The position numbers and the translations under genes are program-made. The notes beneath the pieces were generated by a model. The model saw only the letters and a program-made list of their open reading frames with translations, was not told where the DNA came from and ran no database searches. 64,000 nucleotides of DNA, taken from positions 10,600 through 74,599 of the forward strand of contig JAHISJ010000023.1 of the NCBI GenBank assembly GCA_018818205.1, in the 5' to 3' direction. Shown here piece by piece: positions 5,719 through 31,803 of this stretch; positions within the stretch are counted from its first letter, which is position 1; each line of letters begins with the position of its first letter. The DNA is from Patescibacteria group bacterium (lineage in GTDB: Bacteria; Patescibacteriota; JABMPQ01; JAHIRA01).

Positions 5719-7209
5719 ATGATTCAAACTATTTCAAAGTCGCAAATCTTTTTTTATTGCTTGGTGGCATGCATAGCCGGTAACATCTTTTTTGGAGTGA
5801 CTAAAAGTATTGAAGCAGTCTTTGCAGTATGTGTGCTTGGGATCATCTTGTATGTCCTATTTTTTCGCTTTTCTCCCTTTGTATTTTTACTTATAATAGT
5901 TTGCTTTTTTTGCAGTGCATTGTTTTTTTGGAGTACGCTTGAAGAGCGAACGACCCATCCACTCACACAAGTGTATGAGGAAGATATTTCATTTGAAGGA
6001 CGTATAGTAGGTGACGTAGAAAAAAATAGCGAGAAACAACGTTTGCGAGTACTCGTAGAGACAGTAAATGGAGAGCTTTTAGATCAACCAAAAACACGGA
6101 TTCTAGTAAACACTATGCTTTTTCCAGAATACAGGTATGGAGACCGGGTACAGGTTTCTGGGATACTCAAAGAAGGAGGAATAATTGAAGATTTTAATTA
6201 CGGAGACTATTTACTTAAAGACAATATCATTGGTGCTATCTATAGAGCAAAAGTTACAAAACTAAGCGAAGAAGGCGGTCCCTTAAGTAGTATTTACGTA
6301 ATAAAAGGTGCTTTTACACGTACCATTAATATCTTGCTCCCAGAGCCGGAGGCATCGTTTTTAGCAGGCCTACTCATTGGTGAACGTCGGTCAATTCCAG
6401 ATGAGGTGCTCGATGCGTTTAATAAAACGGGAACAACACACATCATAGCAATCTCCGGGTACAACATTACGCTCATTTCATCAATTATCCTCTCTATGCT
6501 GAAGGGACGGGTATCGAGACGTATGAGTACTCTCATTATTATTGCAAGCCTCACGGTGTTTGTGCTTATAACCGGAGCATCAGCATCGGTCGTTCGTGCT
6601 GCTGTTATGGGTTCAATTGTACTTATATCAAAAATGTCCGGACGTCTTTCAGACGTTAAGAATGTTCTTGCATTGAGCGCTGTGCTTATGTTGATACAAA
6701 ATCCGTTTGTCCTTACGTATGACATTGGGTTTCAGCTGTCATATGTATCTACCATTGGTCTTGTCTACTTTGCAAAGCCCTGTGAACGTCTCTGTTTTTT
6801 TGTCCCAAAGAAAGGAGGTCTGAGGGAGGCATTAGCTTTGACACTAGCTTCTCAAATCGCGACTCTTCCCATTGTTATTTTAAATTTCAAACGCATATCA
6901 CTTATTGCCCCGCTTGCAAATCTGCTCATTGCGCCATTTATTCCTCTGGGAATGGCAACGGGGTTTTTTGCAGTAGTGATTGGTTTTTTGAGTACCGATG
7001 TTGGCATGGTAGCTTCGTGGGTATCCTACCTTATTTTACATACCATCGTTGCCATTATTATGTATCTCTCAAAGCTTTCATATATTGTTATTGATATTCA
7101 AAAATCGCATGTACCACTTTCAGTGATGATCTGGTCACTCGGACTTACTTTGTGGTTTGGTATTAAACGGTTACACTATGCACGAGCAAAAATCAGCCCA
7201 AAAAACTAA
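5719..7209 (+). CDS. comEC: DNA internalization competence protein ComEC/Rec2, N-terminal DUF4131 plus Competence membrane domain (first of two overlapping ORFs)
   Basis: About 10 TM segments. Competence-domain motif TGTTHIIAISGYNITLISSIIL. C-terminal TM bundle. Confidence 0.75.
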   Translation: MIQTISKSQIFFYCLVACIAGNIFFGVTKSIEAVFAVCVLGIILYVLFFRFSPFVFLLIIVCFFCSALFFWSTLEERTTHPLTQVYEEDISFEGRIVGDVEKNSEKQRLRVLVETVNGELLDQPKTRILVNTMLFPEYRYGDRVQVSGILKEGGIIEDFNYGDYLLKDNIIGAIYRAKVTKLSEEGGPLSSIYVIKGAFTRTINILLPEPEASFLAGLLIGERRSIPDEVLDAFNKTGTTHIIAISGYNITLISSIILSMLKGRVSRRMSTLIIIASLTVFVLITGASASVVRAAVMGSIVLISKMSGRLSDVKNVLALSAVLMLIQNPFVLTYDIGFQLSYVSTIGLVYFAKPCERLCFFVPKKGGLREALALTLASQIATLPIVILNFKRISLIAPLANLLIAPFIPLGMATGFFAVVIGFLSTDVGMVASWVSYLILHTIVAIIMYLSKLSYIVIDIQKSHVPLSVMIWSLGLTLWFGIKRLHYARAKISPKN

Positions 7210-15350: not shown

Positions 15351-15821
15351 ATGTCAAGACGAGCAAGAGCGCCAAAGAAAAAAAGGATTCCAGATTACAA
15401 GTTTAAGAATGAACTTGTGGCAAAGTTTATCAACCACATCATGAAGGATGGTAAAAAAGGTGCAGCAGAGCGCGTGGTGTATGGATCTTTTGATATTATT
15501 TCAGAAAAAGCAAAAAAGGAACCTGTTGAGGTTTTTGATCAAGCATTAAGAAACGTCGGTCCGTCACTCGAAGTCAAGGGTAGAAGAATTGGTGGTGCAA
15601 ACTATCAAATTCCTTATGAAGTTCATGGCGACAGGCGAGACACGCTTGCTATGCGCTGGATTATTGAAGCGTGTAGAAGAAAAAAAGGTAAGCCTATGGC
15701 TGAGTTTCTTGCAACTGAACTGATCGATGCTTCTGAAAAGCAAGGTTCAGCATACAAAAAACGTGAAGATGTACAGAGAATGGCAGAAGCAAATAAAGCG
15801 TTTGCTCATTTTGCGAGATAA
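15351..15821 (+). CDS. rpsG: 30S ribosomal protein S7
   Basis: KFINHIMKDGKKGAAERVVY..EVKGRRIGGANYQIPYEV..AMRWII; immediately follows rpsL. Confidence 0.95.
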   Translation: MSRRARAPKKKRIPDYKFKNELVAKFINHIMKDGKKGAAERVVYGSFDIISEKAKKEPVEVFDQALRNVGPSLEVKGRRIGGANYQIPYEVHGDRRDTLAMRWIIEACRRKKGKPMAEFLATELIDASEKQGSAYKKREDVQRMAEANKAFAHFAR

Positions 15822-15839: not shown

Positions 15840-16202
15840 ATGGAAAAGAGCTTAGTAAGATTTTTAGTAATGGTAGTAGCCATTGCTTTTTGTATTAGTG
15901 GTACCACTGTACATGCACAAGATGATACACTCGCAGGGCTTCTCGCTGTTGGTGGAATCAGCCTTGTATCAATCATATGGATGCTGTGGATGGGGTTTGT
16001 ATTTTTGATGATGCTTGTAAATATTGCAGGAATGGTTTTTTGGATTTTTATGATTATAGACGCGGCAAAAAGAAAGTATAAAACAGAAAATGACCAGTTA
16101 CTGTGGATTCTTGTGGTGGTACTCACTGGGTGGATAGGTGCGCTCATCTATTACTTTATGGTCAAAAGAAAAGAAGATAAGCTCAATGAAGACAACAAGT
16201 AG
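15840..16202 (+). CDS. small membrane protein with signal peptide and PLDc_N-like motif (WILVVVLTGWIGALIYYF)
   Basis: Signal peptide, then two TM helices. The W...P/G..G..YY motif resembles the cardiolipin-synthase N-terminal-domain (PLDc_N) family. Low certainty. Confidence 0.4.
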   Translation: MEKSLVRFLVMVVAIAFCISGTTVHAQDDTLAGLLAVGGISLVSIIWMLWMGFVFLMMLVNIAGMVFWIFMIIDAAKRKYKTENDQLLWILVVVLTGWIGALIYYFMVKRKEDKLNEDNK

Positions 16203-17397
16203 AGACACAAAAAATATATTCATTGTTTTTGCCCTTCTTTTGGTAGTTGGTCTCTCAACTACCTTTTATTTTGTATGGAGAAATAATAAAATCGACTCAT
16301 ATACAGAGCCGCAAGATATGGTAGAGATTGACAATATCAACATCGTTCCTGAAAGCTCACAAGGTAAGATTGGTGACTATCTTCCGACGCCAACTAAAGT
16401 ATTCATTAAAGAAGATCAATATATATTCCTCGGTACGATAAACGGAGAAACATATATTCAACTTCAAAAAAGAAAAAACGATGAGTTTGATATGAGTATA
16501 CTCATCCAAGATCCAAATATAACTAGTGCCGTCATTGACACATCAGATGAACACATATTGTATACAACCAGTAAATCAGAGAACAACCTAAGTGGAGGGC
16601 TTTACAATGTAACGCTCAAAACGCAAAAAAAAGAACTTATTGCTGAAAACGTAGCAGGCGTTCAAACATACAGTGATGCTTCATTTTCTAAAGATGGAAA
16701 CAGTCTTGCAGCATTGCAAGAAAAAGAAGGGACAAAAGAACTGGTATTGTATGATGTGAACAAAAAAGTGTTTCAACGAGTAAAGCATTCAGATGAGTTG
16801 CCACTTACGGTTTCTCAGTATGAGTGGCTTCTGGATAATAGTATTCTTTTAGTTGGATACGAGGATGAGAAGGGGAAAGTATACAGGCTACATGATGCAA
16901 GCAGCGATGGGTTTGCTGAAGAACTTTCCTTCAACCAGTTTTTTGCTGAAAACGAAACGCCGCTTCTTGCTAAGCAATCAGCAGATGGTGAGAAAATTGC
17001 AGTGCTGTTTGAGCGAGTAATAGATGAAAATAAAAAGGAGCTCGGGCTCGCCGTTTTTAGAGGTGATTCGTTTATGGAGAGGAAGGATATAGAGCTTCCT
17101 GAGGGAAAGCATGTTGAGTATGCATGGGGAGATGGTGCGGAGCTCTACGCAACACTGGGAACTGATTTTTACAAAATAGATACTACTGCTGAGGAGCTTG
17201 CATTGTCAGAGAAACCACTTGTAGAAAATAGGGGATACCTCTATGCAATTCTAGATGATGTATTTGTATTTAGAAAAACATATCAGTTTGAAGATGATAC
17301 CTTGACAAAACTCATCTTTTATGATAAACTGAGGGAAGATGAAGCAGCATATGAGACTGAATTCAATTCATATATTACCCTTTTAGATATAACCTAA
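16186..17397 (+). CDS. membrane-anchored protein with PD40/TolB-like beta-propeller repeats. Start placed at the Met just before the TM helix.
   Basis: TM IFIVFALLLVVGLSTTFYFVW. Repeated S-x-DG-x-x-hydrophobic motifs (SFSKDGNSLAAL, QSADGEKIAVLF, FLGTINGETYIQL). Confidence 0.45.
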   Translation: MKTTSRDTKNIFIVFALLLVVGLSTTFYFVWRNNKIDSYTEPQDMVEIDNINIVPESSQGKIGDYLPTPTKVFIKEDQYIFLGTINGETYIQLQKRKNDEFDMSILIQDPNITSAVIDTSDEHILYTTSKSENNLSGGLYNVTLKTQKKELIAENVAGVQTYSDASFSKDGNSLAALQEKEGTKELVLYDVNKKVFQRVKHSDELPLTVSQYEWLLDNSILLVGYEDEKGKVYRLHDASSDGFAEELSFNQFFAENETPLLAKQSADGEKIAVLFERVIDENKKELGLAVFRGDSFMERKDIELPEGKHVEYAWGDGAELYATLGTDFYKIDTTAEELALSEKPLVENRGYLYAILDDVFVFRKTYQFEDDTLTKLIFYDKLREDEAAYETEFNSYITLLDIT

Positions 17398-17402
17398 AAA
17401 TT

Positions 17403-19400
17403 ATGCAAGAGTTACAACAGCAACCCCCAAGTTCTGAGCGTGAACAGCCAATCGATCCTGAGGATGATTTTGAAGAGCTCACGGTAGAAGACGTGCTCCC
17501 GGATATGTCCTCTGAAGCGGGTGCTGCAATTTTTATGGAAGAATTAAAACAAAGAATCGAGGAGGATGAATATGAAGCGGCAAAGCTTATCGAGGAAGCC
17601 ATGGCTGGTATTAATGAGGGGTACAGTCCAGATGACCCTGGGAAAAGTGAGAGACCGCTTAAAGAAGTATATGATGAGTACACAAAACTACAAAAGGCTT
17701 TAAAAGAAGCGGGAGTGTCCGTGGAACTTGATTTTGATTCAGGAGGTGAAGATCGAGCACGTGCCAACATTCTTCCTTCTCTTGCACGTACAATAAACGT
17801 TGAACTGGGAAGTTTAGAGATATATCTGGAAGAAGAAGCAACTATGGATTTTAAACAATTCCAGGAAGATTTTGTTCCTTTAATGCAAGAATCTAATACT
17901 CTTCGTGCAGAGGGTGAGAAGGCAAGGCCGGATCAAGTTAAATCGTTTATTAACAAAACAAAAGCAAAATATACTCAGTGGAGAAACGCAGTAAACAGCA
18001 TGCCGGAAGGACAAAAACGTGGCGAGCTTCTTATGGAAATTGGCCATTTAAACTCGCTGGCTCAAGAAATGGAGATGTTTGCAGATTCACTCGTGGTTTT
18101 GGAAGAAACAGATGTTGACAATCAGCGTTCTGCCGGTAAACAAGAAGGTCAGAGAGATATTGGAGCTGAACAAGAAAGAAATAAAGCGCTTGTAGATCGT
18201 CAAAAGAATATTGCTGGAGGTATCGTTGAAACTGTGCAACAGATTGAAAGGCTGGAAGATGTTATTAAAATCGAAGAAGAAAAAGAAAATCCTGACAAAA
18301 CGCATTTGACTACTTTGCGTGGCGATCTTCGTATTCAACAAATTAGGATGAGTCAGGGTGAGCAGCAAATGTTCAATGCAGAGTTCGATTTTGCGTCAGA
18401 AGATGATAAAGAAAATTTGCGAGAAGATCTCAAAGAAGAGCTTGCAGAACAAGTGGATCTGTCGCGTGAGATTTTTCATAATGCACTTATTGTTACCGGA
18501 GATAAGAAAAATTTTTCAACTAAAGAACTGAGTAAACATATTGCGGTTCTTTCTGAATCAGTAAACGCGTTAAATCATGATGAGTCTCGTCTAAATATTC
18601 GTGGGATGGTCACGGTAGATAAAAAGAATACGGCGCAAATTCTTAAAGCAGAGCGAGAAATACAGCGTATGGCTATGCAGCTTGAGGAACGATTGAATCT
18701 TAGAGAAGAGAACAAAAAGCTTTTGGAAAGAGAGGAGGAACTCATTCCAAAAGAATACAAAGAACAACAGCTCGCGGAAGTGATAGATCTGTCAGAAAGG
18801 ATAGAACAAAAGGTGAGAGATACATATGGTGAAGATGAACGATTAGATTCACTGATACGGCATGAGATCAACAAGATAGATATGGATGCGCATTTTAAGT
18901 CAAAGGAATTGGAAAAAGAGGTTGCTGTGCTACAAGCGGAATTTCAAAAATATGAAGATTTTATGGAAGATGGAGACATTAAGCTTGATATGAACAATTT
19001 ATTTTCAAACAATACATTCACAGCAACTCGTGAAAGGATTAGGTTTTGGAGGAAGATTGGAAAATTAGAACCAGAACCAGAAACTGAAAGTAAAGCTGTT
19101 GAGAAAACAGAGGAAACAGCGCCAGAGACTGAAAGTGATGTTGGCGAGGAAACCGAGGAAACAATATCAGAAACTGAAAGTGAGGTTGGTGAGGAAACCG
19201 AGGAAACAGCGCCAGAACCTGAAAGTTACAGAGAGTTTTCTGGCCTATCTGTAGATGAATTTGCCACTCGTTTAATTGCTGCTGAAAGTGAAATGTACGC
19301 AAAAAAAACTGAGCTCGAAAAACTCAATCTAGCGCGCGATTTCTGGAAAATACAGTATAGAGGAGTGGGTGATAGAAGAAAGACGAAAAAAGCCGCATAA
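17403..19400 (+). CDS. large acidic coiled-coil protein (665 aa) with C-terminal ETEE tandem repeats. Unknown function.
   Basis: Glu/Lys-rich with heptad-like segments. No P-loop or catalytic motif seen. DNA-level 45-bp tandem repeat at 19076-19226. Confidence 0.5.
   Translation: MQELQQQPPSSEREQPIDPEDDFEELTVEDVLPDMSSEAGAAIFMEELKQRIEEDEYEAAKLIEEAMAGINEGYSPDDPGKSERPLKEVYDEYTKLQKALKEAGVSVELDFDSGGEDRARANILPSLARTINVELGSLEIYLEEEATMDFKQFQEDFVPLMQESNTLRAEGEKARPDQVKSFINKTKAKYTQWRNAVNSMPEGQKRGELLMEIGHLNSLAQEMEMFADSLVVLEETDVDNQRSAGKQEGQRDIGAEQERNKALVDRQKNIAGGIVETVQQIERLEDVIKIEEEKENPDKTHLTTLRGDLRIQQIRMSQGEQQMFNAEFDFASEDDKENLREDLKEELAEQVDLSREIFHNALIVTGDKKNFSTKELSKHIAVLSESVNALNHDESRLNIRGMVTVDKKNTAQILKAEREIQRMAMQLEERLNLREENKKLLEREEELIPKEYKEQQLAEVIDLSERIEQKVRDTYGEDERLDSLIRHEINKIDMDAHFKSKELEKEVAVLQAEFQKYEDFMEDGDIKLDMNNLFSNNTFTATRERIRFWRKIGKLEPEPETESKAVEKTEETAPETESDVGEETEETISETESEVGEETEETAPEPESYREFSGLSVDEFATRLIAAESEMYAKKTELEKLNLARDFWKIQYRGVGDRRKTKKAA
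19076..19226 (+). repeat. intragenic 45-bp tandem repeat (about 3 copies) encoding ET(A/I)(P/S)ETES(D/E)VGEETE
   Basis: Units beginning near 19112, 19157 and 19202 are nearly identical at the DNA level. Confidence 0.7.
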
Positions 19401-19415
19401 AACAAAAAAGCAGAG

Positions 19416-19886
19416 TTATTGTTTAAACATCTCTGCTATAAGTTCTTGGTCAGCACCTTCTTTAACAAAAAATGGTCCAATGCGTTCTAATGTGCCATTG
19501 CGTAAGGTCCTTAACAAGTATATAAATTGTTTCCAATTACCGTGAAGTATAATGATTATTCCTCCTTTTCCATCTGATTCACGTTCGCAAATAAGATGTA
19601 ATGCCTGATCAGCTCTTGGGATAATATCAACACAATTACTAATACTTCTTGGTGACACAGCACCCATAACTGCTTGTAAGTGGAGAACCCCATTTTCAAA
19701 GTCTTCTATGACTATGAAATGGTTCCAGAAGAGATGATCATTTTTTTCAATTCTTATACGTTCCAATGTGTGGTCTTCGGGGGTTGAATTATCTTTCATC
19801 ATGAAGATGTAGTCGCAGATGAAGAAGCCAATGGCAGTACCAATTTTTTTAATGAGTGTATTAATATGATTGAAAAACTTTTTCAT
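19416..19886 (-). CDS. hypothetical protein (about 156 aa). Start set at ATG 19886, preceded by GGGAGG.
   Basis: Strong SD (rc of cctccc at 19891-19896) 6 nt before ATG. No domain recognised. Confidence 0.4.
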   Translation of the reverse strand: MKKFFNHINTLIKKIGTAIGFFICDYIFMMKDNSTPEDHTLERIRIEKNDHLFWNHFIVIEDFENGVLHLQAVMGAVSPRSISNCVDIIPRADQALHLICERESDGKGGIIIILHGNWKQFIYLLRTLRNGTLERIGPFFVKEGADQELIAEMFKQ

Positions 19887-20009
19887 TTTTCCTCCCAAAA
19901 AATGTGTACATTGTAACAATCGATTATACCCCAAAATATTCGCACGGTCAATAGTTCCTCTCTATCCAAAAGAATGGTACAATGACGTTATAACATAGTT
20001 TCAAAAAAT

Positions 20010-22175
20010 ATGGTTGAACAGCAATCAAAAAAAGAACAAAAAGCCCCTTCAAACGAAGCGTTTGCCGATCTTATTGAAAGCAATCCTCGTTTTTCAGAAG
20101 GAAAAGATGATGAGCAAGTGCAGTTTATCATTGAGGCTCTAGACATGGTTTCAGATGATGTCCTTTCACCAAAAGAGGGGCAAGAACCAAAGAGCCCCGC
20201 GGAAGTACTCGCAGCGTATCAGCTCATTTTTAATAAGGTGGTAGAGAGTCCACAGCATGAAGCGTTTTTGAGTAGCGGGATCTCTGGAAATGCAGTCTAT
20301 CAAATTAAAGAGGCTCCACCTCATTATGCCAAAGCACTCCAATCACTTGAAGATAGAATAGAAGATCAAAGGAGACTTATGATTGCGCTTAGAACCGGTC
20401 AAGATTCCTCAGAATATGACAAAACCACAGCAACGCATAATCTAAAAGTGATTGTTAAAAACCTACGTACCCGAGCACATGCCAAGCAGCCTAAAGATCG
20501 TATACAAGCAGATTCTTACGAGGTTGTGCTTGAACGTGAATTAGTAGCGAAACAGTTGGAAGATGCGGGGTATGTAGAGGCTCTAGATGATTCACTCTCC
20601 GTGAATGTACAAAAGTCACCATATGAGTATACTGTTCCCGTCGCTGAGTTAAACGATCTTCGCCTGGAAGAAGAGATTTTGGAGACGGCTGAAAGTAGGC
20701 AAAAAAAGACTACAACTGATGAGGAGTGGGACTTAGTTATGGATAATGCTGAGGCGGTGAAAAGAAAAGAGAAACTGCAAGAAAAGAGTGATGAACTTAA
20801 GACTGAGGGCCTTTCTGAGAATGAGCAAAAACAGTTAGAATCTGAAACTCGATATCTTGAGTATCTTATGGCACTCGAGGACGCGCGAGTAGAAGGAAAC
20901 AAGACACGAGTGCTTGCCCGTAAGTATGAAGCGAAGCGTGCTCCAATAAGATTTGAAGCGGATACGCGAATGGCCCGGCGTAAAGAAGCGGAAGAGGAAG
21001 TTCACAAAGTTATCCCCGGCAAGCAAGCTGAGAGAGAAGACTTTGGAGGAGAAGAAGCGGATGCCGAGAAAAAAAAGCGAGAAGCTGAGAGTGATGAAAC
21101 ACTAACAATGCAGAGCCAGGATGCGTTAAAGCCAATCCGGGAACATGTAGAAGGTGTGTATTCACGTGCAGAAAAATTTGCGCTGGCAACGGAGCACTTG
21201 ATTAATCAGGGTATGTATGAGGAGGTAACGTTTACTGAAGATGTACCCATGTTAGATAGAGAAGGAAATAGTGTTTTGGGAGCGGAGGGTAAAGAACTTA
21301 CCAAGCAGGAAAAAAGAGTGGAGCAAGCATATAAAGTTGAGCTAACCCCAGATGAAATTAAAACAATGATTGATTCATTGTCAAGACTCAGGGAGCGCAT
21401 GGTAAATGAGAAGGTGCGGGCAGAAGCGGGACTGGAATCATCAGTAGGTATTGTCGAACTTAATTCAGCGTATACCTTTGCAACAATGAATTTGGAGACA
21501 TCTCTTGGGAGAGTTGAGTCTCGACTCAAAAACCTACGACAAGAACTTGGAGCTTTAGAAGAAATCAAAAAGCTTGAATCAGGTGAGAAGGCGCTAGCCT
21601 ACGTACATCCAGAAATTTACCGGGAACTTCACGGCAAAGTAGAACGGCTTGTAAATTTTGATGAACTAAAAGAACATTTTGCTGAGCGTCATGCAGAATT
21701 AGCAAAGCGACTGGGCAAAAAATCACTTGAATCGTTTGGCGATGCATTCATTTTTGAAGAAGTGAAAAAGGATTTACTTAAAGAATCCAGAGAGCTCAAG
21801 CATGAGCTTGGAAGGATGCATATGGAAGTAGGAAGTTTAGAAAATGATAATAATGATGTTGATGATGAGTTACAATCATATGGAATTCAAGATGAGCCAG
21901 GATTACTCATAAACGTGTGGAGAAGATTCACAAAAGCCGATAAAGGAAGGAAGGAAACGCTTGCTCAAAAAAGAGAGGCTTTGCTTAAAGTAAAGCAAAA
22001 AAATACAGAAAAAATAAACATGATACGTTCACAAGCAGGTGAAGTTGCAGAAAAGGTAGCAATAAATATTGTAACGAGAACCGTAATAGAAGAAAAACTG
22101 AAGGTGCTCAAAGCCACAGGTGAGAGAAGTGAACAACGTAAACTGGGCAGTCTCTTTAAGCCAATAGAAGCCTAA
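20010..22175 (+). CDS. large acidic coiled-coil protein (721 aa). Unknown function.
   Basis: Glu/Lys/Arg-rich helical sequence. No NTP-binding or catalytic motifs recognised. Confidence 0.5.
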   Translation: MVEQQSKKEQKAPSNEAFADLIESNPRFSEGKDDEQVQFIIEALDMVSDDVLSPKEGQEPKSPAEVLAAYQLIFNKVVESPQHEAFLSSGISGNAVYQIKEAPPHYAKALQSLEDRIEDQRRLMIALRTGQDSSEYDKTTATHNLKVIVKNLRTRAHAKQPKDRIQADSYEVVLERELVAKQLEDAGYVEALDDSLSVNVQKSPYEYTVPVAELNDLRLEEEILETAESRQKKTTTDEEWDLVMDNAEAVKRKEKLQEKSDELKTEGLSENEQKQLESETRYLEYLMALEDARVEGNKTRVLARKYEAKRAPIRFEADTRMARRKEAEEEVHKVIPGKQAEREDFGGEEADAEKKKREAESDETLTMQSQDALKPIREHVEGVYSRAEKFALATEHLINQGMYEEVTFTEDVPMLDREGNSVLGAEGKELTKQEKRVEQAYKVELTPDEIKTMIDSLSRLRERMVNEKVRAEAGLESSVGIVELNSAYTFATMNLETSLGRVESRLKNLRQELGALEEIKKLESGEKALAYVHPEIYRELHGKVERLVNFDELKEHFAERHAELAKRLGKKSLESFGDAFIFEEVKKDLLKESRELKHELGRMHMEVGSLENDNNDVDDELQSYGIQDEPGLLINVWRRFTKADKGRKETLAQKREALLKVKQKNTEKINMIRSQAGEVAEKVAINIVTRTVIEEKLKVLKATGERSEQRKLGSLFKPIEA

Positions 22176-22201
22176 AAACAAACAAAAAAAGCGCTTAGAA
22201 T

Positions 22202-22756
22202 TCATTCTAGCGCTTCATTAACGAGGTCATCGAGCTCAACTCGAGTACCGTTTTTAATATCAAAAACAATTTTTTCAGGAACGTATTTTTCTGACCCAAT
22301 AAGCATCAAAAGGTCTCTTGGAGGCTTTTTTATGATATGAAGTTTCAGTAGCACCTCATTTTGAGGATCTAGCGAAAGCATATAATCTGTATCTTTGGGT
22401 GGAAGTGCTTCAAAAAAGACGTTTATTGGACTTAAAAGATCCCCACCTCCAAATTGTAACAAGTGGATAGCGCTAAGTGGGCTTTGTACTACGCCCCCTT
22501 GATTTGATGAAAGTCGTAAAATAACATACCCATCACTATCATTGCCGGCATACTTAATGACGCAATGTTGAAAGAAGATGATCGATAATGCCTTTCTTTC
22601 TTCCTTAGAAAAATAAGGTTTAATCCACCAGGGTTTAAAAAAACCAATGGTGCGTGCAATCCAGAGCCAGATCTTCCAAAGAATCCGGTTCCTTTTCATA
22701 ATTTTGTTCCAATTCTGAAATGAATCGGTGTAGTGTTTTGGCATTTCAGCCATCAT
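22202..22756 (-). CDS. hypothetical protein (184 aa) with a Trp-rich amphipathic N-terminus. Possibly a membrane-associated PH-like protein.
   Basis: ORF convergent with the 721-aa gene. An imperfect palindrome at 22186-22213 may be a bidirectional terminator. Confidence 0.4.
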   Translation of the reverse strand: MMAEMPKHYTDSFQNWNKIMKRNRILWKIWLWIARTIGFFKPWWIKPYFSKEERKALSIIFFQHCVIKYAGNDSDGYVILRLSSNQGGVVQSPLSAIHLLQFGGGDLLSPINVFFEALPPKDTDYMLSLDPQNEVLLKLHIIKKPPRDLLMLIGSEKYVPEKIVFDIKNGTRVELDDLVNEALE

Positions 22757-22841
22757 TCCTCCTAATGCAATTTTCAGCTTGTAACTATACCGTTTTTTTG
22801 GTATTGTGTCTAGAGCAATTTACAAAAAGTAATATAAGTCT

Positions 22842-23534
22842 ATGAATGCTAAAGTATGGATTGTCATTATTATTGCAGTCGTGCTTGCAGGTGCACTGTG
22901 TGGTTCTGCTGTCTATTTCTGGCAGGGCAATACATGTCGGGTAGAAAAAAATGAGCTTATAGGTCAAATGCAAGATCTAAATGCTGATGTTCACGCATGT
23001 GAAAAAGAGATAGATGAGGTAGCGATGATTCCAAAGAAAATGGATGATGTAAAAGTAGATGAACCAGCCTACAAAGACATTACGGTTATGGGTGGCTATA
23101 CCGCAGAGGTCCCAGACACCTGGAGCGTAACCACTATTAGTGAGAGTATAGGCGAGAATTCTCTCCCTGACTTACCTACTCAGGCAATCAGTCCTAGCGA
23201 TGTAAGTTTTGGTGATATTCATGCCGGTCAAGTTGACTTTTTCTACGCGCAAAATGACATTGTAGATACATTAATAGAAGAAGAGAAGAATCAAGACGAC
23301 TCAGTAAAAACGACGTGGACTACAGAAGACATTGCTGGGTTTGAAGCGCAGGTTGTTGAATATGACCCCAACTCGGACATAAAAGGTGCTGGGAGTAAAA
23401 AATATTTTGTTACATTAGATGGCGTTGATGTTTCTGGGTTTGATGTTAAAACTATGATGATGTATGTTCATGGAGATGATGATCCAGAATATCAAGCTGA
23501 GCTAGAAAAGTTTTTTCAAAGCATTACCAAATAG
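22842..23534 (+). CDS. N-terminally membrane-anchored acidic protein (230 aa). Unknown function.
   Basis: TM WIVIIIAVVLAGALCGSAVYFW followed by an acidic soluble domain. Confidence 0.45.
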   Translation: MNAKVWIVIIIAVVLAGALCGSAVYFWQGNTCRVEKNELIGQMQDLNADVHACEKEIDEVAMIPKKMDDVKVDEPAYKDITVMGGYTAEVPDTWSVTTISESIGENSLPDLPTQAISPSDVSFGDIHAGQVDFFYAQNDIVDTLIEEEKNQDDSVKTTWTTEDIAGFEAQVVEYDPNSDIKGAGSKKYFVTLDGVDVSGFDVKTMMMYVHGDDDPEYQAELEKFFQSITK

Positions 23535-23680: not shown

Positions 23681-25771
23681 ATGCCTAGAGAGTATTCACT
23701 AGAGAAAACCAGAAATATTGGAATTATCGCACACATCGATGCCGGTAAAACTACCGTAACCGAGCGTATTTTGTTCTACACGGGGATTTCACATAAAATT
23801 GGTGAGGTCCATGAGGGTGAAGCAGTTATGGACTGGATGGAGCAGGAACGTGAGAGAGGAATCACTATCACCTCAGCTGCAACAACGTGTTTTTGGAAGG
23901 ATCATAGAATCAATATTATTGATACCCCCGGACATGTTGACTTTACCGTAGAAGTTGAGCGGTCACTTCGTGTACTCGATGGCGGTGTGGTGGTTTTTGA
24001 TGGTGTCGCAGGCGTTGAACCGCAGTCAGAAACGGTATGGCATCAGGCCGATAAATACAAGGTTCCTCGTATTTGTTTTATCAATAAAATGGACAGAACC
24101 GGCGCCGATTTTTTTGCAGCGCTTGATTCTATTCATGAGAGACTTTCAAAAAGTGCAGTACCGATTCAGCTTCCCATTGGCGCAGAAGATCAGTTTGGTG
24201 GGGTGATTGACCTTATCAATGAGAAGAAATTGGTTTTTGAGGGGGAAATGGGTGCGATAATAAAAGAAGAAGAAGTCCCGGAAGACATGAAGGATCAAGT
24301 AAAAGAGTACCGGGACAAAATGGTAGAAAAGATTGTTGAGCAAGATGAAGCACTCATGGAGAAGTATCTTGAAGGAACTGAGGTAACACCAGAGGAGCTT
24401 ATAGAAGCACTAAGAAAAGGCGTTCTCTCGCTTGATATTATTCCTGTTATGTGCGGAACTGCGCTTAAAAATCAAGGTGTTCAACCGGTTTTGGATATGG
24501 TTATTAAACTGTTGCCGTCCCCGCTCGATGTACCTCCAGTTAAGGGCGAAGATCCAAAAGATCCGGAAAAAGAACTTGAGAGAAAAGCAGATGATAACGA
24601 GCCATTCGCTGGCCTCGCGTTTAAGGTTGCATCCGATCCATATGTGGGCAAACTTGTCTTCTTTAGAGTCTACTCAGGCATGCTTTCCTCTGGATCATAT
24701 GTTCTAAACAGCGCTACCGGAAACAAAGAGCGTGTTGGAAGAATCGTACGTATGCATGCAGATAAAAGAGAAGAAGTGACAGAAATGTACGCGGGTGATA
24801 TTGCAGCAATCGTAGGGCTTAAAGACACTACAACCGGTGACACATTATGTGATCAGGATAGTCCAATAATTCTTGAAAAAATAACCTTTCCAGAACCCGT
24901 TATCTCTATTGCCATTGAGCCAAAAACTAAAGCGGATCAAGAAAAGATGGGTAACGCGCTCAAAACACTTTCAGAAGAGGATCCAACATTTAGGGTCAGG
25001 TCAGATGAAGAGACTGGACAAACAATCATTGCCGGTATGGGAGAACTCCATCTGGATATCATTGTTGACAGAATGAGCAGAGAGTTTAAAGTTGAAGCAA
25101 ATATCGGAAAGCCTCAGGTTGCTTACAGAGAAACAATAAAGAAAAGTTCAGAAGCGGAAGGAAAGTACATCAAGCAGTCCGGTGGTCGTGGGCAATATGG
25201 CCATGTGTGGCTGAGAGTTGAGCCAAATGAGGTCGGTAAAGGATTTGAATTTGGAAATGAGATAAAAGGTGGTGCAATCCCACAGGAGTTTATTCCTCCG
25301 GTCGAGAAGGGTGTTAGAGAAACACTAGATAACGGTGTTCTCGCTGGGTATCCACTCGTAGACATCAAGGCAACGCTTTTTGATGGTTCGTTCCATGATG
25401 TTGACTCGTCCGAGGCAGCATTTAAAATCGCCGGTTCCATGGCGCTTAAAGCAGGCTGTCTTAAAGCAGATCCTGTTATACTCGAGCCGGTTATGAAAGT
25501 CGAGGTATTAACCCCAGAAACGTACATGGGTGATATCGTTGGCGACTTAAACTCCAAGCGCGCAAAAATTGACGAGATGACTGACAGAGGTCAAATGAAG
25601 GTCGTTAAGTGTATGGTGCCGCTTGCATCAATGTTTGGATATGCAACGTCACTCAGATCTATGACCCAAGGCCGTGGAAGCTATATCATGGAGTTTGATC
25701 ATTATGAAGAGGTGCCAAAGAACGTCGCAAAAGAGATCATCGAAGTTAAAACCGGCGTAGCTGCAAAATAA
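23681..25771 (+). CDS. fusA: translation elongation factor G
   Basis: G1 [10 protein letters not shown]3 [13 protein letters not shown]. 696 aa; domains II-V recognisable. Confidence 0.95.
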
Positions 25772-25785
25772 AACCATTTGATCTC

Positions 25786-25820
25786 TACGTAGGGGCGCCC
25801 CTTGTGGGCGCCCTTTTTTT
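25786..25820 (+). terminator. fusA terminator formed by copy 1 of a GC-rich palindrome (TACGTAGGGGCGCCCCTTGTGGGCGCCC + T7)
   Basis: 9-bp GC stem, 5-nt loop, TTTTTTT. Related copies at 26881-26917 and 30351-30380. Confidence 0.7.
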
Positions 25821-25880
25821 GTGCACGCAAAATCCCATAAAAACAATATATACGGGCGGAATTCATGCTATTTAAATCAC

Positions 25881-26315
25881 TCAATCTTTCTCAAACATCT
25901 CCAAAAACTCCACATACCCCTCTTTCTCCAAATCCTCTTTAGAAATAAATCGCAAAGCTGCAGAATTAACACAATAGCGCTTACCGTCTGGTTCTGGCCC
26001 ATCATCAAATACATGCCCCAAATGCGAGGCACCTTTTTTACTTTTCACTTCTGTTCGCTCCATACCGAGCTTCGTATCTTTTTTTTCGATAGCACATTCG
26101 CTACTTACCGTCTGAGAAAAACTGGGCCAACCGGTTCCAGAATCAAACTTATCTTTTGAACTAAATAATGGTTCACCGGTAGCCACATCAACATAAATAC
26201 CTTCTTGCTTGTTGTCCCAGTATTCATTGTTAAATGCAGGCTCCGTGCCTTCTTCCTGTGTCACTGAGTATTGGAGGGGAGTCAACTTCTTTCTTAAATC
26301 TTTTTTGTCATTCAT
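25881..26315 (-). CDS. msrB: peptide methionine (R)-S-oxide reductase MsrB
   Basis: GTGWPSF; the catalytic [11 protein letters not shown]; [10 protein letters not shown]. Confidence 0.9.
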
Positions 26316-26832
26316 GGCTTTTAATATATTCCTCTCTCCCTGATCCTTTTTTATATGCTAAATAGTGCTCTTGCCTCTTTTTGTAGTAATCTTGATGTTC
26401 TTCCTCAGCTTCATAAAACGGTTTTTCGGGAAGAATCTTTGTGACAATCGGACTATCATATTTACTTGAGCGTTCTAAATCGGCTTTAGATTCTTTTGCA
26501 TACTTTTTTTGTTCATCGTCAGTGTAAAAGATTACCGTCTCATACTGCGAGCCTCTATCAGCAAATTGCCCTCCTTTGTCAGTCGGATTAATGTTTCCCC
26601 AAAAACGATTCAGTAGTTCAGGATACATTATAACTTCTGGGTCGTAGATCACTTTAGTTGCTTCAATATGCCCGGTAGTTCCAGTGGAAACTTCTTCATA
26701 CGTTGGATTTTCTGTATTGCCACCGGTATACCCATTTATAGCTTCAATAACGCCATCAAGCTCTTCCATAGCGGCTTCAATACACCAAAAGCAGCCTCCG
26801 GCGAAGATTGCGTGTTTGTAGTTGTCTTTCAT
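26308..26832 (-). CDS. msrA: peptide methionine (S)-S-oxide reductase MsrA
   Basis: N-terminal [14 protein letters not shown] (GCFWG/C active site); [22 protein letters not shown]. Confidence 0.9.
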
Positions 26833-26880
26833 GTAACAATTTTACCATATCTACACGTACATGCATATTTGCACAAAACA

Positions 26881-26917
26881 CCACGTAGGGGCGCCCCTTG
26901 TGGGCGCCCCTACGTGG
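26881..26917. repeat. GC-rich perfect palindrome, copy 2 (CCACGTAGGGGCGCCCC-TTG-T-GGGCGCCCCTACGTGG)
   Basis: 16-bp arms. Located about 50 bp upstream of the msrA start, in an otherwise AT-rich intergenic region. Confidence 0.8.
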
Positions 26918-26967
26918 GGATGTTGTAGGCACAGTATAATAATGCTTTTTGATAAATATTTTTAACT

Positions 26968-26996
26968 GTCATCCCCGTGGAGGCGGGGATCCATCT
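26968..26996. repeat. left 29-bp terminal inverted repeat (GTCATCCCCGTGGAGGCGGGGATCCATCT). Itself contains a 7-bp hairpin.
   Basis: 28/29 match to the reverse complement of 28322-28350. Confidence 0.75.
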
Positions 26997-27096
26997 GCTT
27001 GTTGTGAATATTGGTGGTTTGACAGTACGATGTAAAATAGATATACTTACGTAGCAAAATTACATAAAAAACAAAAATAAGCAGCGCTGGCGCTGT

Positions 27097-28308
27097 TTGT
27101 TTTATTTGATACTAATAATGAACAAAACACGCGAAACATTTGGAGAAATTCTAATTATTTTAAGCTCAGCTTTAGTAGGATTGTCTTTTCAAGAAAATAA
27201 AATCCTTGCCATCTTTTTTTTGATTGCATTGATTTTTGGTTTATATTTGAAGGTCTTTTATAACAAAATAAATACATGCTTAGCTTCTCTTCGAAGGAGA
27301 ACAGACAAATCAATTGTTGTTGGAATCTTGAATGAAATTGATTGGAGCGAATTTAGTAAATTTGGAAGAAGCTGGTCTCCTTATTCCTATGAAGATTGGA
27401 AGGAAGGATTTGAAAGAAGGAATACAATTGTAAAACCGATTAACAAAATAACAGCTTTTCGTCTTAATCGTTGTGATATAGTTTTAAATCCATATAGTGG
27501 CGTATACCCCGAAAGTGATGCAGAATCATTGGAGAGCTTACATCTATTTTTTGATTATGTCTCTCGTGGTGGTGTATTTGTGAACGTTGGTGATATTCCC
27601 GGATATTATGAATACAGCAAACCCCTATATAAACCATACAATTCAGTGCTTATGCAAAATGGAAGATACGAAGTTAATCATGCTCCGTTTGTAAATAATT
27701 TAAAGATTAGAGTCCATCTTGTGGGCGAGAACGATCAATTTATAGTGCCTAGAGATAGTAATGACTATGAAGTAGAGCGATATATTGTGGTAAAAGAGGG
27801 AAAAGAACAGCAGGATTGTATTAGTGAAAACTATATCCCATGGGGGGAAGGTTGTTATGAAAGAAAAAAATATGATTTAGGTGTAAAAGAATTTCCTGAA
27901 GGAGAATATTCTTCTTGTTTTAGAAAAAAATATGGAGAGGGTTCTTTTATTATTTCATTAATGCATATGGGAAAAGCAGAACAAAAAGATGATGAGGATG
28001 CCAAAGATAAGCATCCAAACAAAAGTGTAAAAAATATTCTTATTATAAATGCCATTAGGAGTGTTATATCAAAAGAAAAAAATTTCTTTGGTAGTATTTA
28101 TCGTTATATTAAAGGTAAGATTAGTATTATATTTAAACATATAGGTATAGTCTCATTTTTTGGCAAGATGGCTTTTTTAGTAGTGATTACATGGCTCATT
28201 ATAGTAACATTTGTATTATTTTATTTTAGGTTTTATCAGTGTCCATATCAAAAAAATGGCAAAGAAAACAATTATTATATTGATTCAGTCACAATCAAGA
28301 TCAGGTAA
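27097..28308 (+). CDS. hypothetical membrane protein (403 aa), very AT-rich codon usage (K/N/I/Y/F-rich). N- and C-terminal TM segments flank a Tyr/Glu-rich soluble domain.
   Basis: ORF. TM helices ILIILSSALVGL, AIFFLIALIFGLYL, FLVVITWLIIVTFVLFYF. No catalytic motif recognised. Confidence 0.45.
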   Translation: MFYLILIMNKTRETFGEILIILSSALVGLSFQENKILAIFFLIALIFGLYLKVFYNKINTCLASLRRRTDKSIVVGILNEIDWSEFSKFGRSWSPYSYEDWKEGFERRNTIVKPINKITAFRLNRCDIVLNPYSGVYPESDAESLESLHLFFDYVSRGGVFVNVGDIPGYYEYSKPLYKPYNSVLMQNGRYEVNHAPFVNNLKIRVHLVGENDQFIVPRDSNDYEVERYIVVKEGKEQQDCISENYIPWGEGCYERKKYDLGVKEFPEGEYSSCFRKKYGEGSFIISLMHMGKAEQKDDEDAKDKHPNKSVKNILIINAIRSVISKEKNFFGSIYRYIKGKISIIFKHIGIVSFFGKMAFLVVITWLIIVTFVLFYFRFYQCPYQKNGKENNYYIDSVTIKIR

Positions 28309-28321
28309 TTTTGATTTGAGA

Positions 28322-28350
28322 AGATGGATCCCCGCCTCCACAGGGATGAC
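28322..28350. repeat. right 29-bp terminal inverted repeat (AGATGGATCCCCGCCTCCACAGGGATGAC)
   Basis: Reverse complement equals the left repeat with one mismatch. Confidence 0.75.
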
Positions 28351-28476
28351 AAAAACAAAGACAATCATAAATGAATCGTACCCGACTGCATGGTCATTCC
28401 ATATTCACAATACAAAAAACCCTCCACGCATACATGCACGGAGGGGATCTCGTTTTTAGCATTAATCTGAAAAAAA

Positions 28477-30249
28477 TCAGAAGGTGTAGAAGACGTTTAA
28501 GGAAAAGTAGGTAAGTTTCAAAGTGGCAAGAGGATTAGGATTCTCCAGGCTATAGTAGGTGTACATGCCTGGTTTCCATTTGAGCGAAAACCCAAATGTG
28601 CTCGGTCTCATATCAAACTTCTCAGAAAGATACCATCCTCCTCGCAGTTCAACATAGATGCCGTGCAAGGAATGCCCCATGGCTTGTGTCACAGACAGAT
28701 TATAATATTTTACTGTCTTTGATATGCCATAAAGGTTAGTATGCCATCCCATTGCGGCAACAAAGAAGAAGTCTGATTTATGTCGTTTGCCACTAAGGTA
28801 AAAATCCATGCCAAAGAGAATGTGCAAATCGAACCCATTTGGATTAAACATATTCATTCCAACGGTCACTTCAAGCGATCCACCAATAGGAGCAATTTTT
28901 CCTTTAACCCGTGTTATTCCACCAATAGTAAGGGAAGATTTCCTGGAAATCTTTGCAAAGTCAGTTGTAAATCCAAGCGTGGGCCCAAACTGTACAATGA
29001 CATTGCGGCTGGATTTCTTTTTTGAAGTCACTTTTCTCCATGTCACTTTCTTTGTTAGTGGCCATGGTGGCGGGTATCTGTTATACAGCTTTTCAGCAAT
29101 TTTTCTACCAGTTGGAAGTGGGTTTTTAACGAATTTTTTTCTACCTACTTTACTTAAAAAGCTTTTAACATGGCTTACAACACCGCCTCCAAATACTTGA
29201 TGACTAAGGCCAAGTTTGTAAACTATTTTTTGGTAGTCCTCTCTTCTTCTTGGGTAGGTTCCTGAGAAGGAAATTCCACCAGACAAACCTGAATGCGATC
29301 CAGTTGAGCTGAGTGTGCGCCTAACCTCGATACCATATGAGGCACCAAATCTTTTATCTGGCACACAAGATATCAAAAGGAAAAGCGGTATGTTTTTCTT
29401 GGAACATTCCGTATAAAACTTTCGAACTTCTGGATTACTTTTGTCAAAGCGACTTTGGCTATCCGAAGTCGCACGTATAGAAAGAGTAGATTGTATTTTA
29501 ACAACTGCACCAAGATTAAGCGATTCTTTAAGTGAAACAACAATAGCATCTCGAACGAGCTTACAAAATCGTCCCTTCATCTCATATGTACCAATGCCAA
29601 TCAGCTTTGTCACAGTTCGTGCAGCAGGCTTCCAAGGCAATGGATACCGCTTACGCAGAATATCTGCAACTTTTTTTGGCCAGGTAGTATTATTCTTCTT
29701 CCAAAGCTGTGCACGATTACTTTTGGCATAATACGCATTAATCTTGTATTGAAGTGAATCACTTTCGAAGCCAACCCCATATAATTGTACAAGCTTTAAG
29801 TAAGGGTCGTTATAATTCAAAGAAAACGTAATACCGCCTCCATTGTACGCACGAAGCCCGGTATTATTTACAGGATGATAATTTTGAATAACTTGTACAA
29901 ATTCGTAGTAGAAATGAACTGTACTTTGGCTATAAGGGGTACATCCAAGTAACAAGAAAAGCTTAACTTTCTTTTTTATAGCTTCTTTGTGAAACTTCTT
30001 TACAACATTGGGAGCAATCTTGTTATAATCAGGCACCAAACTTTTTGTCGTGTGACTAAGCGTAAGGTATGAATTGAATCTCACTACCGATCCCTTTTTA
30101 AGCATCGCTTTAAGTGATTCAACAACCAAGTCGCGACTCAGTTTGCACAATGTGCCCTTCATCGCATAACCACCAACGCCAATAACGGCGCTTCCAAATA
30201 CATTCTGTGGCAGCAGCAAAAGCGCTACCAAAAACAACATTTTTCTCAC
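28477..30249 (-). CDS. secreted protein (590 aa): signal peptide, two tandem copies of a roughly 90-aa domain, and a C-terminal beta-rich region ending in aromatic Phe (OMP-like beta-signal)
   Basis: Signal peptide MRKMLFLVALLLLPQNVFGSA. Duplicated GxGxY-MKG-x-CKL-x-RD-x-VV-SLK...LFLL-x-C-x-P blocks. C-terminus ...LKLTYFSLNVFYTF. Confidence 0.45.
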   Translation of the reverse strand: MRKMLFLVALLLLPQNVFGSAVIGVGGYAMKGTLCKLSRDLVVESLKAMLKKGSVVRFNSYLTLSHTTKSLVPDYNKIAPNVVKKFHKEAIKKKVKLFLLLGCTPYSQSTVHFYYEFVQVIQNYHPVNNTGLRAYNGGGITFSLNYNDPYLKLVQLYGVGFESDSLQYKINAYYAKSNRAQLWKKNNTTWPKKVADILRKRYPLPWKPAARTVTKLIGIGTYEMKGRFCKLVRDAIVVSLKESLNLGAVVKIQSTLSIRATSDSQSRFDKSNPEVRKFYTECSKKNIPLFLLISCVPDKRFGASYGIEVRRTLSSTGSHSGLSGGISFSGTYPRRREDYQKIVYKLGLSHQVFGGGVVSHVKSFLSKVGRKKFVKNPLPTGRKIAEKLYNRYPPPWPLTKKVTWRKVTSKKKSSRNVIVQFGPTLGFTTDFAKISRKSSLTIGGITRVKGKIAPIGGSLEVTVGMNMFNPNGFDLHILFGMDFYLSGKRHKSDFFFVAAMGWHTNLYGISKTVKYYNLSVTQAMGHSLHGIYVELRGGWYLSEKFDMRPSTFGFSLKWKPGMYTYYSLENPNPLATLKLTYFSLNVFYTF

Positions 30250-30350
30250 AATTTCCTCCTTTTGTGAATGAAAAAAAGACCATAAGAATGCGTGTCACCA
30301 TAGCATAAAACCCAGACCACGTCAACCCAAAAAGGACAATATTATGATTC

Positions 30351-30380
30351 GTAGGGGCGTCCCTTGTGGACGCCCTCTAT
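30351..30380. repeat. GC-rich palindrome, copy 3 (GTAGGGGCGTCCC-TTGT-GGACGCCCTCTA), degenerate
   Basis: Shares core GTAGGGGCGyCCCTTGTGGrCGCCC with copies 1 and 2. Located upstream of the start of the minus-strand 590-aa gene and upstream of tuf. Confidence 0.65.
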
Positions 30381-30612
30381 CCACACCCTCAAAAAATCCA
30401 ATGTAAGGGAATAACAGGCAATCGTGTCTATTTTTTCTTTTATCCAAGCCAAAAAAAAGTATCTCCAAGCTCAAAAGGGTATACGGAAATAAAATACTTG
30501 CATGATTTACAAGAACTTGTTATACTCATGCCTAGTGTTACGCTAGGTTGATTCTAGCGGGACTTAATGTTCAACATAATTTTATCTATCAATAGTATTA
30601 AATCAAAAAAAT

Positions 30613-31803
30613 ATGGCAGAAAAATTCGAACGTACAAAACCCCATCTCAACGTGGGTACCATTGGACACGTTGATCATGGTAAAACTACACTGACTGCGG
30701 CAATCCTTAAAGTTATTGGTGCTTCAGGCGTTGGTAAAGCACAAGATAAAGATGTCAGTCAAATCGATAATGCTCCAGAAGAAAAAGAGCGTGGTATTAC
30801 TATTGCGACTTCTCACTGTGAGTATGAGACAGAGAAGAGACACTATGCACATGTTGACTGCCCAGGACATGCTGATTATGTCAAGAACATGATCACCGGT
30901 GCTGCTCAAATGGACGGTGCTATTTTAGTGGTATCTGCAGCTGATGGCCCTATGCCACAAACACGTGAACACATTCTACTTGCTAAACAAATTGGTGTTC
31001 CCTCAATTGTTGTTTTCTTAAATAAGGTTGATCAGGTTGATGATCCAGAGCTTATTGAGCTAGTTGAAGAAGAAGTACGTGATCTTCTTAAAAAATATGA
31101 ATTCCCAGGTGATGAAATTCCTATCATTAAAGGGTCAGCACTCAAAGCACTTGAGAATCCTTCAGGTGATGATGCAAAGCCTGTTTTAGAACTTCTTGAG
31201 GCACTTGATACCTACATTCCTGAGCCTGAGAGAGATATTGACAAGCCATTCCTTATGCCAATTGAGGACATCTTCTCAATAGAAGGTCGAGGTACAGTGG
31301 TAACCGGTAGAATTGATCGTGGTGTAGTTAACGTTAATGACGAGGTAGAAATTGTCGGTCTGCGCCCAACGCAAAAGACGATTGTTACCGGAATTGAGAT
31401 GTTCAACAAGTCACTCGATGAAGGTAAGGCTGGCGATAACGCTGGTATACTCGTTAGAGGTACTAAAAAAGAAGAAGTTGAGCGTGGACAAGTTCTTGCA
31501 AAGCCAGGGACAATCACTCCTCACTCTGAGTTTGAAGCAGAGGTGTATATTCTTACTAAAGAAGAAGGTGGTAGACATACTGCATTTGCAAAGGGTTACA
31601 AGCCGCAGTTTTACGTCAGAACAACAGACGTAACTGGTGAAGTTGAGCTTCCAGAAGGTACAGAAATGGTTATGCCAGGTGACACTGCAAATCTAAAGGT
31701 TAAGCTGGCAAAAGAAGTTGCCATGGAAGACGGTATGCGCTTTGCTATTCGTGAAGGTGGTAGAACCGTTGGTGCGGGAGTTGTTTTAAAGATCATTAAA
31801 TAA
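30613..31803 (+). CDS. tuf: translation elongation factor Tu
   Basis: [51 protein letters not shown]. Confidence 0.95.

Follow-up and report, generated by a model that had tools for sequence, protein, structure and literature searches.

An inverted pair of NTS/dRS3-like hairpin repeats brackets a single accessory gene between fusA and tuf in a Patescibacteria contig

What kind of unit is a single gene enclosed by an inverted pair of short hairpin repeats, with nothing resembling a transposase between them? This question is raised by a 64-kb stretch of DNA (hereafter the window) from a 318-kb contig deposited as "Patescibacteria group bacterium". In this window the 29-mer GTCATCCCCGTGGAGGCGGGGATCCATCT is followed, after a distance of 1325 bp, by its own reverse complement (Table 1). 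The two arms are identical at 28 of 29 positions, the sole mismatch being a C→T substitution at position 9 of the right copy. A repeat finder extended the arms to 33 nt with 94% complementarity and returned the pair as the longest inverted repeat within the window, and dinucleotide shuffles of the window contained no match to the 29-mer. Both arms are intergenic and their GTCAT ends point outward. When the window was extended by 8 kb to the left, giving 72 kb in total, the only copies of the 29-mer were the two arms; copy counts for the source genome refer to these 72 kb, as this genome is not among the DNA collections scanned below. An earlier note, made from the sequence alone, had described the 29-bp repeats, and in this it was correct. 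It had interpreted the segment as a mobile cassette with ends like those of a miniature inverted-repeat transposable element (MITE) or an insertion sequence (IS) remnant, or alternatively as two copies of a hairpin element inserted in opposite orientation.

Judged by its sequence, the 29-mer represents a variant form of the NTS/dRS3 hairpin known from Neisseria and as such a divergent, non-canonical member of the "Ssn-related motif" (SRM) class. Chenal et al., Nat Commun 2025 (PMC11893778) defined the Neisseria Transformation Sequence (NTS) as CGTCATTCCCGCGMAVGCGGGAATCYRG, the inner palindrome of which is the long-known dRS3 repeat, and described a wider class of SRMs that spans many bacterial groups, with Sphingomonas and Rickettsia named as SRM-rich. 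The protein SsnA is a 94-aa single-domain GIY-YIG protein that binds the motif solely as single-stranded DNA and in one orientation, and that cuts a few bases upstream of it (PMC11893778). The same study found that the C right after the palindrome is the base most crucial for SsnA binding, and that the three bases ahead of the palindrome count most for cleavage and give the motif its direction. The window motif TGTCATCCCCGTGGAGGCGGGGATCCAT is identical to the NTS at 22 of 28 positions, and two of the six differences constitute a compensatory stem pair in which T-A is replaced by C-G. In both window copies GTC stands immediately 5′ of the palindrome (GTC-ATCCCC...) and C directly after it (...GGGGAT-C). 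The core of the left arm is thus laid out as GTC, the stem ATCCCCGT / GCGGGGAT with the loop GGAG, and then C. The likeness to the NTS/SRM and Ssn system (PMC11893778) lies in these features taken together, namely a directional hairpin whose GC-rich palindrome is preceded by GTCAT and followed by C, at an intergenic site. The ends are accordingly not those of a MITE or IS remnant as first proposed, but repeats of a family that has been described together with a GIY-YIG nuclease acting on single-stranded DNA.

Folding predictions agree with the earlier observation that each repeat forms its own hairpin. Both arms contain the GC-rich semi-palindrome, and as single-stranded DNA each is predicted to fold into an 8-pair hairpin in which one pair is a mismatched T/G position. 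The left arm folds with -7.7 kcal/mol (shuffle z = -2.7) and the right arm with only -4.5 kcal/mol (shuffle z = -1.2), the latter being weaker because the C→T substitution weakens the stem. An Rfam scan of the window at gathering thresholds returned two tRNAs only, with no RNA family on the repeats. The same type of palindrome is found in dRS3 and the Neisseria intergenic mosaic elements, with ATCCCC-N8-GGGGAT here versus ATTCCC-N8-GGGAAT there. In the mosaic elements, ATTCCC-N8-GGGAAT inverted repeats surround short repeat units, and the enclosure of a segment by inverted copies is a further point of likeness. The Neisseria arrays are, however, highly iterated and built of 50-150-bp repeat units, whereas the window holds a single pair around a 1.3-kb gene.

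The distribution of the motif supports its assignment to a widespread family. In a scan of one genome per species, the exact 25-base core gave 14 matches, one per genome, in 14 species of unrelated groups, whose hosts include Sphingomonas, Sphingorhabdus, beta- and gammaproteobacteria, Desulfosarcina, Desulfocapsa, a Rickettsia endosymbiont, Caedibacter and Wolfebacteria. By chance we would expect roughly 0.001 matches to a 25-mer in 596 Gb (estimate). A metagenome scan added two matches, each of them a small pair in high-GC DNA, and a scan of viral contigs gave none. The further copies that the earlier note proposed to look for were found in 14 other species and at two metagenome loci, but not elsewhere in the 72 kb. 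A wide distribution is likewise a feature of NTS/SRM. As compared with that system, the window differs in its 6 departures from the Neisseria consensus, which place it outside the published SRM pattern, in its Patescibacteria host and archaeal-type cargo, in the lack of an ssn gene found in 72 kb, and in its two copies per 72 kb as opposed to hundreds in Neisseria.

We compared the arrangement of the motif at the 16 outside loci (14 genomes and 2 metagenome loci). At seven of them the 25-mer has an inverted partner, and the resulting pair spans 69-95 bp and always consists of a + copy followed by a - copy with GTCAT outward. Typically, a short spacer separates the 25-mer from a downstream inverted sister motif, e.g. 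GGATTCCCGCCTTCGCGGGAATGAC. Such small pairs, with spacers of 11-37 nt, are the commonest form of the 25-mer motif. Their arms agree at 22-26 of 29 positions, as against 28 of 29 in the window pair. The possibility that the repeat is a standalone hairpin, raised in the earlier note, holds insofar as the family is widespread and occurs mostly solo or in small pairs, but not with regard to pairing, given the seven outward-facing pairs. The SRM family habitually pairs in this inverted, outward-facing way, and the geometry of the window pair is no coincidence. By the same token, the description of two oppositely oriented hairpin copies fits the unit correctly, while their opposition is a family habit rather than an accident of insertion. 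Neither around the seven small pairs nor at either possible boundary of the window pair was a target-site duplication found; immediately outside 26968 and 28350, where the earlier note had suggested looking for one, the flanks read ...ATATTTTTAACT and AAAAACAAAGAC....

Larger units of this geometry are also known. In Neisseria, inverted copies surround a gene, often one for a membrane protein ("NTS-gene-NTS"), or the nuclease gene itself ("NTS-ssnA-NTS"), and the window shares this arrangement. The Neisseria motifs cluster around membrane-protein genes, and NTS-gene-NTS reduces transformation if SsnA is present (PMC11893778). A counterpart of the nuclease-encoding form was found in Wolfebacteria at locus L007 (MGIW01000003.1, 2950-3560), where a 95-aa ORF (open reading frame) carries a GIY-YIG domain (Pfam 8e-18) in which Tyr7/Tyr18/Glu65 have the same spacing as Y6/Y17/E64 of SsnA. 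This ssn-like gene lies between two copies of a single SRM variant, GTCATCCTG.TCCGCCGGCTGGCGGATTCAG, which face outward and are 33/38 identical, and the surrounding 8-kb stretch contains at least 15 GTCAT-hairpins of several variants. The variant at L007 differs from the window motif, and L007 is the sole nuclease-encoding unit of the same architecture that we found. An SRM/Ssn system is thus present in Patescibacteria, a group absent from the main text of PMC11893778.

The arms enclose exactly one long ORF, as the earlier note stated. It has 403 aa when read from a TTG start, but the ATG that begins a 396-aa protein is the likelier start and is the one used in the public annotation. A promoter-like sequence lies just inside the left arm, ~70 bp upstream of this ATG. 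The AT-richness that had been judged by eye is confirmed by measurement: the gene has 30.8% GC compared with 39.9 ± 2.6% over 68 window genes (z = -3.5) and a third-position GC content of 22.9% (z = -3.0), both being the lowest in the window. In addition, among all 1383-bp stretches of the window, the one beginning at 27001 has the lowest GC. The ORF had no match in Pfam or NCBIfam, and these together with a fold search revealed no transposase, integrase or nuclease domain, in agreement with the lack of transposase motifs noted before.

An exhaustive HMMER search of the cargo protein yielded 216 representative relatives, mostly of 300-340 aa, which share the motifs NPYGG.YPE and GG.FVN..D.P. 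The GH42 trimerisation domain was matched weakly by 5 of 60 aligned relatives. We built an AlphaFold model on the alignment of these relatives (pLDDT 78.6, pTM 0.76), which replaced a single-sequence model of pLDDT 42.6. In this model two N-terminal and two C-terminal long helices are arranged around an alpha/beta domain, which bears out the N- and C-terminal transmembrane segments predicted earlier. The alpha/beta domain is similar to GH42 domain B and to ThuA-like proteins (Foldseek E = 3e-5 to 7e-4), and the ThuA-like domain is modeled as class I glutamine-amidotransferase-like. The homology and structure search suggested in the earlier note thus leads to a ThuA/GH42-like fold. According to the model, the cargo is a membrane-anchored ThuA/GH42M-like protein with nothing transposase-like about it.

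The cargo appears to belong to an unnamed family that is mostly archaeal where its context is known. One relative is located on an archaeal chromosomal contig beside genes for L13e, L15e and RNase P proteins, and another on a contig whose neighbour gene carries the Pfam domain DUF3194, which we take to be archaeal. A further homologue, annotated as a hypothetical protein, is encoded on the Saccharolobus shibatae plasmid pB12E5 (L022, 4608-5621; NZ_CP077716.1, 36369-37382), where it adjoins a "plasmid regulator" gene; it is 26% identical to the cargo with a pairwise E of 5e-14. The cargo is a foreign, accessory gene.

The site that it occupies is itself variable. The cassette lies between fusA and tuf, in a gap shared with msrB and msrA (minus strand) and with a 587/590-aa gene. 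We examined the same gap in four relatives with an EF-G identity of 76-80%. Gene order is conserved on both sides of the gap in all four, and the gap contains a 558-aa gene in L020, 135-aa and 104-aa genes in L018/L019, a 116-aa gene in L024, and in L023 (4528-8349) three tandem paralogous genes of ~390 aa, each composed of many HTH_3/HTH_31 repeats. In none of the four relatives did the fusA-tuf gap contain the cargo gene or the motif; the earlier note had considered that the ORF might be conserved here in relatives lacking the repeats, and these relatives lack the gene as well. The gap (25771-30613) is a variable spot between two highly conserved genes and behaves like a hotspot of accessory genes. 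When contigs were retrieved by exact identity to MsrA or to the 587-aa protein, every one of them also carried the cassette, and a Logan contig has the same sequence as the window throughout 13.7 kb.

In two respects this locus resembles the "minimal mobile elements" of Neisseria, since the content between the conserved fusA and tuf differs in each of five genomes and a ComEC gene is present in the window. That concept was defined in a single naturally transformable species, for variable cassettes that lie between conserved genes and change hands through transformation with homologous recombination, whereas the genomes compared here share only 76-80% EF-G identity and are only putatively transformable. 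In the ComEC region (5719-8074) an ORF with DUF4131+Competence (496 aa) overlaps one with Lactamase_B (298/305 aa), which could be a split gene or a frameshift, a matter that bears on Ssn/NTS as this system acts on transforming DNA.

The explanation that we favor, and regard as fairly probable, is that an SRM pair brackets a self-promoted, archaeal-type accessory gene and takes effect via Ssn-type cutting and recombination. In this explanation the two 29-mers would be inverted SRM copies, i.e. directional hairpins that are bound as single-stranded DNA by small single-domain GIY-YIG Ssn nucleases, with a cut expected a few bases 5′ of GTCAT. If the stretch became single-stranded during DNA uptake, replication or repair, one hairpin would be in the cleavable orientation whichever strand was exposed, and an Ssn-type nuclease would cut just outside the cassette at that end. 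Such a cut would part the cassette from one flanking homology arm and may thereby alter the ease with which it is gained, replaced or lost by recombination; for incoming transforming DNA, an effect of this kind is the one measured in Neisseria (PMC11893778). DNA uptake is plausible because of the ComEC gene in the window. Gene and repeats were probably a unit before or on arrival, which would have occurred via recombination in the variable gap with no transposase involved. Two unrelated insertions are unlikely because the arms are more alike than those of the pairs elsewhere and are the only copies in 72 kb. What the comparisons above demonstrate is SRM membership by sequence logic, the habitual pair geometry, an accessory cargo of a mainly archaeal family, and a variable site.

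Several observations weigh against this explanation. The published NTS search definition fails on the window motif, which has 6 mismatches where 1 is allowed, and the degenerate SRM pattern, as transcribed from the Methods of PMC11893778, gave no match in the window; the same pattern does match sister copies at loci L001, L003, L007 and L009. The weakened stem of the right arm would fit a decaying relic without present function. No convincing GIY-YIG (cd10448-type ssn) ORF was found in the 72 kb by a six-frame regular-expression search of the window and by Pfam listing, and a cognate nuclease in the source organism is unproven. The hairpin motif was not found near cargo homologues in three other contexts. 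Moreover, the homologues in these contexts are also below the GC content of their surroundings, so part of the low GC of the cargo may be a family trait and not a sign of recent transfer. The effect on transformation would be an extrapolation from experiments in Neisseria meningitidis. Finally, empty sites were sought in the relatives and in the contigs that carry the neighbours, and none was found; the relatives differ across the whole gap, and a precise empty site is lacking because even the nearest of them are distant, with EF-G at most 80% identical. Mobility of the cassette is unproven because no target-site duplication or empty site was found, nor a third copy or an ssn gene in the 72 kb. 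What survives of the mobile cassette first proposed is an inverted pair that bounds a single foreign, self-promoted gene absent from the locus in relatives, and what is missing are the marks of transposition.

The strongest competitor, which we nevertheless consider unlikely, is a non-autonomous transposable cassette. Here SRM-bounded units would be mobile via Ssn, with SRM-ssn-SRM as the autonomous form and the cargo unit as a derivative moved in trans. The end geometry is the same as that of SRM-ssn-SRM at L007, the arms are unusually alike, the pair precisely delimits a compositionally odd segment, and the small outward-facing pairs of many genomes resemble derivatives from which the interior has been deleted. 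The lack of a target-site duplication is also what is seen in single-strand transposons such as IS200/IS605, which typically make none. Chenal et al. themselves liken NTS-ssnA-NTS to an insertion sequence and draw the analogy to REP/RAYT (PMC11893778). Against this, neither a second copy nor an ssn gene was found in the 72 kb, contigs carrying the neighbours show no empty site or polymorphism, cargo homologues elsewhere lack the repeats, and Ssn is not known to carry out transposition. The outward-facing arms also imply two predicted cuts on opposite strands, whereas IS200/IS605 cuts both ends on one strand; simple peel-and-paste excision consequently does not follow. That SRM-bounded units are true Ssn-driven mobile elements, and that such a cassette brought the archaeal-type membrane-protein gene into a Patescibacteria genome, appears to us doubtful. 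If it were true, Ssn/SRM would constitute a new class of single-strand DNA transposon that carries passenger genes.

The analogy drawn in PMC11893778 between SRM/Ssn and the repetitive extragenic palindromes (REP), their mosaic arrays (BIME) and the REP-associated tyrosine transposases (RAYT) joins two systems of short extragenic hairpins recognised as single-stranded DNA, in both of which inverted copies flank the system's own nuclease gene and target-site duplications are lacking. The nucleases differ, being GIY-YIG in the SRM system versus HUH/Y1 (IS200/IS605-like Y1 transposases) in RAYT, and the GTAG tetranucleotide of REP is absent from the 29-mer and present in the other hairpin family of the window. 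No Y1_Tnp gene was found among the window-region genes with Pfam listings. In L024, a 237-aa gene near the str operon (2603-3316) has a faint Y1_Tnp (IS200/RAYT-like) match. To MITEs and IS-derived cassettes the unit is similar in its terminal inverted repeats, foreign content and absence of an internal transposase, and it differs in having no target-site duplication, no further copies in 72 kb and no transposase family with the same ends. An IS or transposase origin was rejected on account of the missing transposase, integrase and nuclease domains in the ORF together with the missing duplication.

In a secondary association the repeats would be unrelated to the arrival of the gene: either a small SRM pair was already present and received the gene in its spacer, or single hairpins came to lie on each side of the gene in two separate events. 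As the commonest form of the motif, small pairs are a plausible target, and dRS3 of Neisseria has been reported as a target of a phage recombinase (PMC11893778); the cargo family, moreover, is archaeal and free of repeats elsewhere. On the other hand, no other motif copy was found in the 72 kb or in the fusA-tuf gaps of the four relatives, so that nothing indicates that SRM pairs were available in this lineage as insertion targets. It is improbable that two separate insertions would lie within 1.4 kb of each other, be oppositely oriented and agree at 28 of 29 positions, and proximity alone would arise in ~4% of cases if two copies were placed at random in 72 kb (estimate). We regard this association as quite unlikely. 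It is very improbable that the arms are simple regulatory hairpins, such as terminators or insulators, or that the inverted repeat arose by chance, for although both are intergenic and hairpin-forming and the left one lies just upstream of the promoter, shuffles give no match, neither arm was called terminator-like (unlike the neighbouring GGGGCGCCCC hairpins and the one at 28420-28445), no T-run follows either arm on the relevant strand, and exact conservation of a 25-mer across phyla is unexpected for ordinary terminators.

An SRM pair bracketing an accessory gene is not a new kind of element, as the 2025 study (PMC11893778) had already described the motif family, the nuclease and the configuration in which motifs bracket a gene. 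The locus is a new example, which extends the known arrangement to Patescibacteria with an unusual cargo, and by itself it shows nothing mechanistically new. Its value lies in its simplicity: a near-identical motif pair encloses one foreign, self-promoted gene in a gap between two of the most conserved genes of bacteria, and the host has a reduced genome and probably relies on DNA uptake. This makes it a clean minimal case both for the role of Ssn nucleases and hairpins outside Neisseria and for the movement of motif-bounded units. The two arms, as two defined oligonucleotides, provide a concrete substrate with which to ask whether such hairpins mark genes for restricted or for promoted exchange.

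Table 1. Coordinates of the repeat pair, the enclosed gene and neighbouring features in the window.
Feature	Position	Strand	Remarks
Left NTS/SRM-type hairpin repeat	26967..26999 (core 26968-26996)	+	GTCAT end outward; motif definition from PMC11893778
Right NTS/SRM-type hairpin repeat	28319..28351 (core 28322-28350)	-	GTCAT end outward; C→T weakens stem
Sigma-70-like promoter, TTGACA-17-TATACT	27019..27047	+	11/12 match to consensus; inferred function
Cargo gene, 396 aa (403 aa from TTG 27097)	27118..28308	+	Predicted helices and ThuA/GH42-trimerisation-like domain (alignment, model)
Intrinsic-terminator-like hairpin of 587/590-aa gene	28420..28445	-	Just outside right arm; excluded from cassette
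Second, unrelated hairpin repeat (GTAG + GGGGCGCCCC palindrome)	26880..26917	.	-25 kcal/mol; 50 bp outside left arm
587/590-aa gene	28477..30249	-	Signal-peptide-like N-terminus
fusA	23681..25771		
tuf	30613..31803		
ComEC gene	5719..7209		

Some further features of the region were noted in passing. The 587/590-aa gene has an internal duplication in which residues ~20-110 resemble residues ~220-300. A word-indexed homology search with the 590-aa protein returned no relatives, and it did not return the protein itself either. The 558-aa gene that occupies the same position in L020 shows marginal similarity to it.

The second hairpin family, ACGTAGGGGCGCCCCTTGTGGGCGCCCCTACGT, is REP-like in that it combines a GTAG tetranucleotide with a GC palindrome. 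It has exactly 3 copies in the 64 kb (25786-25815, 30349-30378 and the one in Table 1), all of which lie in the fusA-tuf gap at the borders of gene blocks. Two of the copies score as terminator-like, and the third contains a compensatory double change (GGGGCGTCCC...GGGACGCCC).

Upstream of the gap, rpsL and rpsG (14908-15821) are separated from fusA by ~8 kb (15840-23534) of large lineage-specific genes. The genes of this interval, which encode proteins of 419, 665, 172, 721, 184 and 230 aa, have no Pfam domains, and this arrangement is partly conserved in L020. The 665-aa ORF contains a 45-nt tandem repeat at 19068-19226.

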